Positions 52,224-55,616 of a stretch of DNA of 64,000 nt are shown one piece after another (the first letter of the stretch is position 1; the number at the start of each line of letters is the position of its first letter). The DNA is from a virus. The stretch lies in the IMG/VR virus record IMGVR_UViG_3300045988_166613, positions 1 to 64,000 of that record. One strand, 5' to 3'. A program made the translations under genes and the position numbers. The notes beneath the pieces were generated by a model that saw only the letters and a list, made by a program, of their open reading frames with translations, did no database searches and was not told the origin of the DNA.

Positions 52224-52487
52224 TTAGATATTTTTAAGTGTTGCTGTTCTTTTTATTATAAGTTCATCATGTTCTGGTGTTACATATTCTTTTCCCATAG
52301 CTATACCTTTTTTCTCTTCTTTATGCACTTTAGAAATTGTAATAAATTTACCTACTTTTGTTTTTTCATATCCTTGTCCAGCTAAAAATTCTATAACAGT
52401 ATCTACGTTTCCTATCATAGCTTCAGCTTCTTTCTTTGATATTTTCATTTCCTCTGATAATCCTTTTATTAATTCTACTTTTGTCAT
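52224..52487 (-). CDS. HU/IHF-family DNA-binding protein
   Basis: MTKVELIKGLSEEMKISKKEAEAMIGNV... plus a beta-arm region. AAAGGAGAA RBS. Confidence 0.8.
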   Translation of the reverse strand: MTKVELIKGLSEEMKISKKEAEAMIGNVDTVIEFLAGQGYEKTKVGKFITISKVHKEEKKGIAMGKEYVTPEHDELIIKRTATLKNI

Positions 52488-52841
52488 TTTACATTTCTCC
52501 TTTTCTCTCTTTTAATTATTTAATTTATTTTAAAATATGTTTTGCCTTACGGCTATTAATTACTAATTTATTTATGTATTTATATTTTTTATTTTTCTTT
52601 AATGAGGGTAGCCATGAGAGAAGCTACCCAAACTAAAGAGAGAATAAAATGTTATAATACATAAAGGAGTGTAGTTTTCCGTTCACCACACGGTAGAAGT
52701 ATTAATAAAATCAAGTTTTTATTTACTCTACCATAATAGGCTATTAAGAGGGTTCTTCACAAAAACGCTACAACCGTTGGTATGACTAGATTAGAAGGGT
52801 GTTATGTTTTTTATTTTTTAAAAAAGAGGGGTAAATTTCGC

Positions 52842-55616
52842 CTATTTTTCACACTTTTTAACTATTTTATATGTATTTCCAAATATATATTCTGTTCCAT
52901 TTTTATCTTCTATTAATATCTTATCCTCTAAAATATTATTGCTTTTAAAACACTTCAAGACATATTGTGCATTATTGTTATATAATAATGTTAATACTAA
53001 AGATGTCATATCTGAAAACTTTTTATCTGTTTCTTCTTTAATAATACCAAAAGCTTTTCTTAATACTAACATTACTGTATGATTGTTTAATTTTATAGTT
53101 CTTAATTCTTCTAAAGCTTTCTTCTTAGCGTTTCTGCTAATTGTATATCTAGCCTTCTCCCCATATTTTTCTTTACAAGACAATGTTTTACACCAACCAA
53201 TAGTTCTATTGCACTTAACTATAATATCTAATATTTTTTGTTGTTGTCCTTTTTTATCTGGTTCACCTTTTCCTAGTTCAGAATATTTTACCAATAGATC
53301 TTTTACATTAATTAATTTAGTAGATAAAGTTTTTCCCAATTCATTATCCATAACATCTTGTAGATAATCCATTCCACAATCTAAATGTTTTAACGTTCTA
53401 AACTTATTATCCGCTATCTCTCCAAAGAATTTAGGTACTATCATTTTCTTAATTATTTTTTCTTTTCCATCTTCATCTTTTAATGTTTCTTTATCAAAAT
53501 CTAATATATTTTTATTATTAACTCTCCATTTATTTATTTTTTGCATTTCCATTAATAATGACATTCTCTTACCATTGTTATCCATAAAGCTTTTTTTAGC
53601 CATATCAATAGCTATTTGAGAAAATGATGATAACATTGAACTTGCATCATATAGTTTTTGTATAAGTTCCTTATCGCCATTGTTGGCTATATAGTGCCAC
53701 ATATAAGCATTACATATAGCACTTTTATTTACTATTTGTCCTATTGTTCTTGTAGATTGTCCTAAGTAATTATCTAATTCTGCTAATTCTTCAAGTGTAT
53801 CTCTTTTTAAATCTGTTTTCCCTTTTATAGCATTAATAGGTGTATAATATTTATCCATACATTCCTTAGCCTTAGAGACTATTGTGGGCTGTTCTATTAA
53901 TAAAGCACTATCTATATCAAAATCACATCCTTGAAGTCTATTCATTACATCCACATCATATGTATTAAGTACAACTACAAAATCACTTAAATTAAACCAT
54001 TTGTACTCATTATGATATGTATTGGTAACATGAGCTATATTTCCACTATTTATTTGTGGATTTCTTATCATGCATAACTCTTTATTATTATCAAATCTAG
54101 GGCAATATACTTCCCACCCATGACTTATACTCTCTGTAACCATTTCTTCTTGTGTAGTTTGTTTTAGCATAGTATATGGACATGAAAATAATATAGAGTA
54201 TAATGAATTAGTAATTCTAACTTTACCAGTTCTAACATCTTTTATGTAGTTATTAATTTGTTTTGATTTATAATCTTTAAATGCTTTTGTAAATCTATAA
54301 TCACTATTTACAGATAATAAATCACTAATCATTTCACCAGATGATAATTCAAGACTATTATTACCTATATAATGCATAAAATATGTCATATCATTTTTTT
54401 TCTTTGTTATTTCTTCTCTTTGTTTCTTACTTAATTTGTTACCTATTGCACCATTTTCAATTAAACAGTTATTTTTTAACATTTTAATATAATTAATCTC
54501 TTCTTGAGCTATTTCTTTAACTTCATCATAATTTAATTCTAATGAATTTATCATTTGATAAGATAATCTATTAGCATAACCATAGTTGCCTATATGATCT
54601 GTTTTTACCACGCCAAACATTGAATCTATATGTGACCACCAATGTAAATAACATTCTTTCTTAGAACTAAATTTATTGGCAAACTTTAAGAATTTACAAC
54701 TAGAAGGGGTTATAACTAATTTAATATCCTTACTATCTACCCAACCTCTATACATATCATAAACTTTAGTTATATTGTTTTCTCTATAATATTGTTGTAA
54801 TTTAGTATTAAAAGCTGCACACTTAGTAAAATCATTTCTTAATAATGCTACTGAATGTCCTTTAATTATTTCATTTTTTTCAAAAACAGATTCATCCAAT
54901 AAGCCTTGTCCATCTGTCATATTATTTTGTACTGGATAATCTTCATATTGATTAACTACTATTTCATTATCTTCATTTCTTTCTGTAACAGAAGCTTTAA
55001 CTTTCATTTCTTTACCCATTACATCATCAATAATAAGAATTTCTTCTCTTTTTATATCAATTGTCCCTATTATTCCAGACATTATTAAAGATATATAAGC
55101 ATTTTTAGAAGTTAAATCACAATAATCTCCTATAGGAAATTCTAATCCCAATAAGCATCTATCATATAAATCTTTATACATTTTCTCTTTTATAAATATA
55201 GCACTTGCAGTTCTTGCCTTACTTCCCCCTCTCTTAAACATTTTATATTTTATTCCATTTATTTTAAATCCTTCTGTATAAAGATGTTTTCTTATCTTTT
55301 TAACATCTAATTCTTTCTTACCATCAACCTTATAATGCTTTGTAAAGTTAACATTAACAAATAAATCTGTGTAATATTTATCATCCTCCTCTCTCCATTC
55401 ATTAGGATATTTTTCATTAGCCCTTATAGTTTCTAGACTATAAGGTATTGTTGCTGAATATAGAACATCTTTGGTAAATAAAAACTCTTTTGTATCCTTT
55501 CCATCTTTATCTTTTTTCTTTTTCTTTGTATTGTATCCTATCTTATCATCCTCTAATTGTGCTTTATATATGTATGCTGATTCTAAATTTAATATATATG
55601 TATTTTCTGCTCTCAT
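52842..55616 (-). CDS. YonO-like single-subunit RNA polymerase (double-psi beta-barrel, RdRP-related)
   Basis: CMIRNPQINSGNI followed by GCDFDIDS (DxDxD triad, codons at 53910-53924), the pattern of cellular RdRP/YonO-type polymerases. An HU-like gene lies downstream, like yonO-yonN in SPbeta. Confidence 0.6.
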   Translation of the reverse strand: MRAENTYILNLESAYIYKAQLEDDKIGYNTKKKKKDKDGKDTKEFLFTKDVLYSATIPYSLETIRANEKYPNEWREEDDKYYTDLFVNVNFTKHYKVDGKKELDVKKIRKHLYTEGFKINGIKYKMFKRGGSKARTASAIFIKEKMYKDLYDRCLLGLEFPIGDYCDLTSKNAYISLIMSGIIGTIDIKREEILIIDDVMGKEMKVKASVTERNEDNEIVVNQYEDYPVQNNMTDGQGLLDESVFEKNEIIKGHSVALLRNDFTKCAAFNTKLQQYYRENNITKVYDMYRGWVDSKDIKLVITPSSCKFLKFANKFSSKKECYLHWWSHIDSMFGVVKTDHIGNYGYANRLSYQMINSLELNYDEVKEIAQEEINYIKMLKNNCLIENGAIGNKLSKKQREEITKKKNDMTYFMHYIGNNSLELSSGEMISDLLSVNSDYRFTKAFKDYKSKQINNYIKDVRTGKVRITNSLYSILFSCPYTMLKQTTQEEMVTESISHGWEVYCPRFDNNKELCMIRNPQINSGNIAHVTNTYHNEYKWFNLSDFVVVLNTYDVDVMNRLQGCDFDIDSALLIEQPTIVSKAKECMDKYYTPINAIKGKTDLKRDTLEELAELDNYLGQSTRTIGQIVNKSAICNAYMWHYIANNGDKELIQKLYDASSMLSSFSQIAIDMAKKSFMDNNGKRMSLLMEMQKINKWRVNNKNILDFDKETLKDEDGKEKIIKKMIVPKFFGEIADNKFRTLKHLDCGMDYLQDVMDNELGKTLSTKLINVKDLLVKYSELGKGEPDKKGQQQKILDIIVKCNRTIGWCKTLSCKEKYGEKARYTISRNAKKKALEELRTIKLNNHTVMLVLRKAFGIIKEETDKKFSDMTSLVLTLLYNNNAQYVLKCFKSNNILEDKILIEDKNGTEYIFGNTYKIVKKCEK

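Follow-up and report, generated by a model that had tools for sequence, protein, structure and literature searches.

The 64,000-nt stretch of viral DNA analyzed here (positions 1 to 64,000 of IMG/VR record IMGVR_UViG_3300045988_166613; hereafter the window) encodes a 924-aa protein of the YonO-like family, that is, a single-chain RNA polymerase (RNAP) with two double-psi beta-barrels and one active site, and we predict that it most likely serves as the DNA-dependent transcriptase of the late genes of its element. An earlier note, made from the letters of the window and a list of its open reading frames (ORFs), had proposed a YonO-like single-chain double-psi beta-barrel polymerase, and this identification is supported by sequence, profile, structure and synteny. 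The protein shows each testable defining feature of the family, and the element around it shows the synteny of the late module of the prophage SPbeta, where YonO was described. Family membership, conservation of the active site, purifying selection and gene order are all shown by the results set out below.

The polymerase, its family and its active site

The polymerase ORF (Table 1) begins with ATG and has an aaaggag ribosome-binding site upstream. The ORF list contains both motifs that the earlier note had picked out: residues 515-527 read CMIRNPQINSGNI (written C515-MIRNPQINSGNI-527) and residues 563-570 read GCDFDIDS. The distance between them, given as about 40 residues, is a fair description, given that R518 and D565 are 47 residues apart and I527 and G563 are 36 apart.

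In Pfam, the sole significant family for this protein was RdRP (PF05183, "RNA dependent RNA polymerase"), which matched residues 80-643 over profile positions 22-512 of 582 (42.5 bits, E 4.9e-11; gathering cut-off 23.8 bits). Judged by this profile, a score above threshold places the polymerase in the superfamily and is silent on the template. The PHROGs match was phrog_8308 (function unknown, E 1.4e-89). A BLASTP comparison with SPbeta YonO, where yonO and yonN were taken from the annotation NC_001884, gave 22% identity over 495 aa (E 1e-7) and paired MIRNPQ with ILRSPH and LQGCDFDIDSALLI with LLQFDNDGDKALII. The earlier note had suggested a profile comparison and a structure prediction, and both came out in favor of its proposal. 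A profile built from 25 family sequences recovered YonO by hhalign with a probability of 98.2% and an E-value of 4.7e-14 over 422 columns (query 106-595 against YonO 123-564); as far as these alignments go, the resemblance is far beyond chance. The AlphaFold2 model, built on the same 25-sequence alignment (pLDDT 87.8, pTM 0.82), matched the two-barrel polymerases QDE-1 and RDR2: the best 21 Foldseek matches in the PDB were all QDE-1 (Neurospora, Thielavia) or RDR2 (maize, Arabidopsis), with E-values of 5.8e-17 to 7.8e-11, probability 1.00 and TM 0.37-0.48, followed by large subunits of multisubunit RNAPs with marginal E-values only. The top match in the viral structure library was A0A8S5SZT9, an "RdRP" of an uncultured phage (TM 0.80). 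Sequence searches of the PDB with the polymerase and with the family profile returned chance matches only, with neither QDE-1 nor RDR2 among them, so only Pfam and the fold reveal the link to these enzymes. The family is large, as a profile search of 1.84 billion representatives found 1,467 clusters at E <= 1e-3 and 693 at E <= 1e-30, counted at 50% identity.

Eight residues invariant across two-barrel RNAPs have been listed by Ruprich-Robert and Thuriaux, corresponding in QDE-1 to D709, R738, K743, R962, P964, D1007, D1009 and D1011 (PMC2919709). We aligned 249 full-length homologues (at least 800 aa, the window protein included) to the family hidden Markov model (HMM), and YonO separately. 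D235, R260, K265, R518, P520, D567 and D569 were present in all 249 sequences and D565 in 248; YonO, aligned with hmmalign to the family HMM, has the identical residue at all eight universal positions. G236 was also kept in 249/249 and is identical in YonO. The spacing in the first barrel is D-25-R-5-K, compared with D-29-R-5-K in QDE-1 (PMC2919709), and in the second barrel R-x-P is followed after 45 residues by D-x-D-x-D, as in QDE-1. From these spacings and the YonO alignment, the eight conserved residues would be the universal eight of QDE-1.

The surroundings of these residues distinguish the subfamily. The arrangement RNP....G[DN]I had been called typical of eukaryotic-type RdRPs and YonO; R-x-P is indeed common to the window protein and YonO, but N519, N523, G525 and N526 are subfamily-specific, and G[DN]I belongs to the subfamily of the window, since G525 and N526 are replaced by E and H in YonO. 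The loop had been read correctly as DFDID, with Gly replaced by Ile, but this is no peculiarity of the gene: loop position 4 is occupied by S (160 of the 249 homologues), I (59), V (17), G (12) or A (1), and a regular-expression count agrees, so that Gly is the exception in the subfamily. Evolution has been able to dispense with the "invariant" Gly of this loop. The dN/dS ratio of the polymerase gene was 0.09 against the closest relative and 0.17 and 0.22 against two others, values which indicate that the gene is under strong purifying selection.

Gene order, the HU-like neighbor and relatives

The window has a GC content of ~26%. Up to ~62 kb, the point at which the GC skew changes sign, almost every gene is on the minus strand. 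Along the direction of transcription, the early part comprises a helix-turn-helix protein, an Ant antirepressor, a UvrD-type helicase, a PAPS-reductase-like protein, an N6/N4 DNA methylase and the polymerase. Then come the HU-like gene, two small ORFs, a DUF2828/DUF7788 protein, a 566-nt gap and a small zinc-ribbon ORF, followed by the exonuclease, terminase, portal, head and tail genes. When all minus-strand window ORFs were compared by tblastn with SPbeta 50-100 kb, collinear matches were obtained for YonJ (35% identity, E 8.5e-64), YonG (2.4e-15), YonD (1.7e-7) and the polymerase itself (3e-6), and the YonF terminase was matched by two window ORFs (E 5.4e-8 and 9e-14). The portal was assigned through phrog_2739 (E 1.6e-100); in the same tblastn search, yonE gave no direct portal match at E 1e-3. 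Because of these collinear matches, we regard the element as an SPbeta-like phage with its polymerase in the yonO position. The polymerase gene closes the early/middle region of the element, a phage or (probably) phage-plasmid of Clostridium. No near-identical DNA was found in the phage or plasmid collections, so the element of the window is not a phage or plasmid deposited there.

The HU-like gene had been placed 354 nt downstream of the polymerase, which is exactly the length of the gap. Its product matches Pfam Bac_DNA_binding with 28 bits (cut-off 22.4; E 2.7e-6). The proposed parallel with yonO-yonN holds for the arrangement, with 30% identity between the HU-like protein and YonN, but HU is a frequent and not an obligatory neighbor, as two relatives (40-47% identity) have none beside their polymerase. 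The arm of the protein reads KKGI--AMGKE, compared with RKGRNPQTGE in YonN, and does not contain the GRNP motif of the DNA-intercalating arm; the intercalating Pro is therefore absent in the HU of this close clade, while the GRNP motif is kept in the HU beside a more distant polymerase (L007).

Close relatives, with 70-93% protein identity, have the same gene order, together with upstream MerR and plasmid replication genes (RPA or Rep3), the Rep genes lying a few kb upstream. One of them is labeled as a 162-kb C. perfringens plasmid and relatives also occur in C. sardiniense; these close relatives are probably phage-plasmids. More distant relatives (34-47% identity) were found in Clostridium culturomicium, C. 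beijerinckii, C. tagluense, Sinanaerobacter, Anaerovorax and others, often on contigs of 146-223 kb, and homologues at 21-32% identity on ~200-kb C. botulinum plasmids and in Clostridium phage D-1873. The C. botulinum plasmids that carry polymerase homologues measure 197-208 kb and include NC_015417 (strain BKT015925), and homologues are also present on small (36-37 kb) C. perfringens plasmids. In three distant relatives the polymerase again precedes packaging or structural genes, with HU in only one of the three; in all relatives examined, it stands at the head of the late block.

Proposed transcription of the late genes

YonO is a strict DNA-dependent RNAP that pauses little and whose Asp triad is essential for catalysis; it is required for 37 late SPbeta genes, which are silent without it and form one operon, with a start site downstream of yonN and upstream of an unannotated non-coding RNA and yonK (Forrest et al. 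2017, PMC5467207). Taking into consideration that: (i) the element is collinear with SPbeta and (ii) its polymerase is homologous to YonO, we consider the role of late-gene transcriptase the most likely one. Host RNAP would transcribe the early region (antirepressor, UvrD helicase, PAPS-reductase-like, methylase, polymerase and HU genes) from sigma-A-like promoters. The phage polymerase, in which D565, D567 and D569 on the second barrel are predicted to bind the catalytic Mg2+, would then transcribe the DNA of the late block independently of the host, from the tRNA-like element and the YonJ-like exonuclease through YonG, terminase, portal and YonD to the head, tail and lysis genes. The output would probably be one or a few long, poorly pausing transcripts, with YonO in SPbeta as the model. 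The activity, template, promoter and targets assigned to the enzyme are those that homology and collinearity suggest.

The earlier note had supposed that the late genes stand behind strong terminators and lack host-type promoters. Terminator-like hairpins do precede the packaging genes: between 44 and 63.9 kb we found 10 sites on the coding strand against 2.6 expected, including one after the HU gene (Table 1), one in the 566-nt gap (49839..49806) and one at 46909..46795, and these fit the idea that host transcription is blocked there. However, the small ORF and the YonJ-like gene are directly preceded by a sigma-70/sigma-A-like sequence, TTTACA-18-TAAAAT (49680..49651), which is also kept in the closest relative (L002). 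As this match precedes the first late genes, the claim that there are no host-type promoters is not established. In this AT-rich DNA, promoter-like matches overall were neither rarer nor commoner than chance (132 against 150.9 expected from shuffles).

The early region also contains four minus-strand copies of a 22-nt element, AAATGTTGAAATAAATTAAATA, at 56475-56496, 58034-58055, 60891-60912 and 61943-61964; in three cases a sigma-A-like -35/-10 pair follows closely. The 12-mer core of this element, AAATAAATTAAA, occurs at 14 sites in the window, all on the coding strand, against 0.92 expected from shuffles that ignore the AT-rich composition of intergenic DNA. At several start codons, those of the polymerase and HU genes among them, a copy is found 20-60 nt upstream. 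The element may be UP-like or a regulator site. That AAATAAATTAAA is a promoter used by the phage polymerase was rejected as the best reading, given that it precedes early genes and the polymerase gene itself, often 20-60 nt from a start codon or shortly before a sigma-A-like -35/-10 pair.

In SPbeta, the YonO promoter and any partner factors were left undefined in 2017 (PMC5467207), and our literature searches found no later paper defining them. Primers given in the supplement of that study bracket the start site to about 10573-10330 (-) of the SPbeta locus (L001), 260-500 nt downstream of yonN. Transfer of this P_YonO region to the window revealed no convincing shared motif. The SPbeta yonN-yonK spacer (L001 9153-10833, minus strand) is 1.7 kb long, has no annotated gene and is relatively GC-rich; its sole Rfam match is the DUF3800-VIII RNA motif at 9474..9409 (47.5 bits, gathering 40.2).

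Of all features here, the 354-nt spacer that separates the polymerase gene from the HU gene offers the best prospect of something new. Within it lies a 21-nt block, TAGTCATACCAACGGTTGTAG (TAGTSATACCAAYGGTTGTAG), present in one copy per locus in the relatives L002, L003, L004 and L008, which makes five related elements with the window; this copy always precedes the HU gene, also where an additional gene follows the polymerase. This Clostridial block was not found in SPbeta. The spacer folds better than shuffled sequence (z = -4.16), the hairpin at its end shows compensatory changes in 5 of 11 pairs, and an Rfam search of the spacer gave no match. A promoter, an element of an untranslated region and a small RNA are all candidates for its function. 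It is conceivable, if rather unlikely, that the Clostridial clade forms a functionally distinct YonO subfamily, with a D-x-D-[S/I/V]-D loop, and that the spacer block or RNA is the polymerase's own promoter or regulatory RNA. If true, this would be the first recognizable promoter or regulatory element for this class of polymerase, whose promoter was undefined in PMC5467207.

Several points weigh against the assignment as late-gene transcriptase. The protein is only 22% identical to YonO and aligns with it only over residues ~106-595, which leaves the N-terminal 100 and the C-terminal 330 residues with no counterpart of known function. D235, R260 and K265 were mapped onto QDE-1 only by spacing and the YonO alignment; the metal loop does not have the Gly of canonical DxDGD; and the function proposed for the whole subfamily is the one that homology suggests. 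A promoter for the phage polymerase was looked for in the window and none was identified, and, given the sigma-A-like match, host RNAP could contribute to the late genes.

Two other functions have been weighed against transcription of the late genes by this polymerase. The only curated family match is PF05183, the strong structural matches are all cellular RNA-dependent RNA polymerases (RdRPs), and related phage proteins carry an RdRP annotation, so the protein might copy phage or host RNA, for instance in the amplification of a regulatory RNA or as a countermeasure to host RNA-based defense. We consider this very improbable: YonO strongly prefers DNA templates (PMC5467207), the gene occupies the yonO position of an SPbeta-collinear genome, and QDE-1 itself also uses DNA templates (PDB 7y7r and 7y7s, among the Foldseek matches). 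The second possibility, to which we also give little credence, is that the polymerase fold has altered or lost catalysis and now acts as a structural or regulatory DNA/RNA-binding protein, or as a maker of short primers or of a single non-coding RNA. The same Gly is invariant in the NADFDGD motif of multisubunit RNAPs. Its replacement in DFDID, where QDE-1 has DYDGD (PMC2919709) and YonO has DNDGD, would agree with such a change, as would the structured non-coding region and the tRNA-like element nearby; yet the three Asp and five other universal residues are kept in 248-249 of the 249 homologues and dN/dS is 0.09. Moreover, loop position 4 varies freely (S/I/V/G/A) amid tightly conserved family residues, which suggests variation that is tolerated rather than decay.

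Neighboring features and comparison with known polymerases

Table 1. Features of the window discussed in the text.
Feature	Position	Strand	Basis
YonO-like single-chain two-barrel RNA polymerase gene	52842..55616	(-)	924-aa ORF, Pfam RdRP, phrog_8308, hhalign, AlphaFold, Foldseek, dN/dS
First beta-barrel region, ~residues 184-302, with D235, G236, R260, K265	54711..55067	(-)	Strand-rich in model; boundaries approximate
Second beta-barrel region, ~residues 471-574, with R-x-P and metal loop	53895..54206	(-)	Secondary structure, YonO RSP...DNDGD alignment; boundaries approximate
R518-N526 codons (RNPQINSGN)	54039..54065	(-)	R518, P520 in 249/249 homologues and YonO
Predicted catalytic loop D565-F-D567-I-D569 codons	53910..53924	(-)	Conserved triad, aligned to YonO DNDGD
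354-nt non-coding spacer with 21-nt block 52788..52768 and hairpin 52639..52596	52488..52841	(-)	Four-locus alignment
HU-like (YonN-like) gene, 87 aa	52224..52487	(-)	Pfam Bac_DNA_binding, phrog_379, 30% identity to SPbeta YonN
Terminator-like hairpin directly after HU gene	52186..52214	(-)	Consensus scan, 12-pair stem, weak T-run; putative function
Degenerate tRNA-Asn(GTT)-like element, head of late block, 566-nt gap	49729..49795	(-)	Rfam tRNA 53.6 bits; CCA at 49726-49728
YonJ-like exonuclease, first large gene of presumed polymerase-dependent late block	48219..49424	(-)	YonJ match, phrog_284
YonG-like, terminase (YonF-like, two ORFs), portal and YonD-like genes	38576..44717	(-)	tblastn, phrog_2739, phrog_3314, phrog_15503

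The tRNA-like element at the head of the late block was not called by ARAGORN, and an Rfam search of the 49.4-50.0 kb gap returned the tRNA model only. In L003 and L004 the corresponding position is taken by an intact tRNA-Asn(GTT) gene, to which the element aligns except that it has no variable loop; a decayed tRNA gene is the probable reading. A gene for a 503-aa protein (49991-51502, minus strand) with DUF2828 and DUF7788, a weak vWA match and a match to phrog_850 ("RNA-binding protein") is located between the HU gene and this element; the gene is absent from L002, and the architecture of its product may resemble that of Ro60/TROVE-vWA proteins. We set aside the tRNA-like element as a Y-RNA-like partner of this protein in favor of the decayed tRNA-Asn, the simpler reading because relatives carry intact tRNA genes there.

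Directly upstream of the polymerase (55686-57778, minus strand) are the genes for a 426-aa PAPS-reductase-domain protein and the N6/N4 DNA methylase, which may be a DNA-modification pair; relatives have at this position a PAPS-reductase gene with NT5C, or other methyltransferases. The YonF-like terminase (41765-43775, minus strand) is divided into ORFs 43775..43164 and 43021..41765 by a 142-nt, GC-richer gap with hairpins, and a similar split is seen in L004 (183 aa, 280-nt gap, 419 aa). The split may reflect an intron or a frameshift, or the gene may truly consist of two parts. The L002 terminase was rejected as a comparator for an insertion: it is 22% identical and of a different terminase type, and for this reason no insertion boundaries were drawn from it. 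The tape-measure gene (18295-24272, minus strand) appears to be split as well, into ORFs 24272..22623 and 22224..18295, which correspond to phrog_4211 positions 459-764 and 800-1732; Rfam gave no match in the 398-nt gap between them. A 674-aa HNH/homing-endonuclease-like protein (26884-28908, minus strand; phrog_559, E 3.4e-88) is encoded within the late structural region.

Like the polymerase of the window, YonO is a single polypeptide (839 compared with 924 aa) with the same eight active-site residues, encoded in the same place after the early genes and before the HU-like, YonJ, YonG, YonF, portal and YonD genes. The two proteins differ in that YonO has RSPHLFREH where the subfamily has RNPxINxGN, and DNDGD in place of DFDID, and their termini cannot be aligned. 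The elements differ too: the window comes from one with a low-GC Clostridium host and plasmid-like relatives (Rep3/RPA, MerR), and where SPbeta has its 1.7-kb non-coding region after yonN, the spacer of the window is shorter and includes protein genes and the remnant of a tRNA. QDE-1 and RDR2, the best structural matches (TM ~0.45 over ~930 columns), share the two barrels, R-x-P and the Asp triad; however, they are only 10-13% identical to the window polymerase and belong to RNA-silencing biology, whereas a DNA template is expected here. The beta and beta' subunits (Rpb2/Rpb1) of multisubunit RNAPs have the same eight universal residues and bind metal through the Asp triad of the second barrel (PMC2919709), but form a ~400-kDa core compared with one ~105-kDa chain here, and their Foldseek matches have E-values of ~3e-3 or weaker, with TM below 0.1. 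No trigger-loop homology has been reported for YonO in published work.

Other phage two-barrel RNAPs, such as gp66, the virion RNAP of the crAss-like phage phi14:2, are single-chain or split and related to the RdRP branch. The crAss-like enzymes appeared here only as weak, non-significant BFVD matches (S0A2C3_2 and crAss-like entries; E 0.2, TM 0.15), and, unlike phi14:2 gp66, the window gene sits with middle and late genes and shows no sign of virion packaging or an early role. T7-type single-subunit RNAPs have the same proposed role, host-independent and processive transcription of late genes, but an unrelated right-hand, Pol I-like fold, and gave no sequence or structural match in our searches.

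To our knowledge, YonO is the sole biochemically characterized bacterial or phage member of the RdRP-like two-barrel branch. YonO-like proteins of Firmicutes prophages were recognized by Iyer et al. in 2003, as cited in PMC2919709, and again in 2010, and the type member was characterized in 2017 (PMC5467207). The polymerase of the window is an expected member of a family already characterized in SPbeta, and it leaves the current picture of these enzymes unchanged. Mildly new are the occurrence in a Clostridial phage-plasmid, a metal-loop residue that is relaxed throughout a large subfamily, an HU protein with no GRNP motif and the conserved spacer element. These results show that the module of polymerase, HU and late operon exists in large Clostridium phages or phage-plasmids, and that the natural variation within the subfamily can serve structure-function studies and a comparative promoter hunt.

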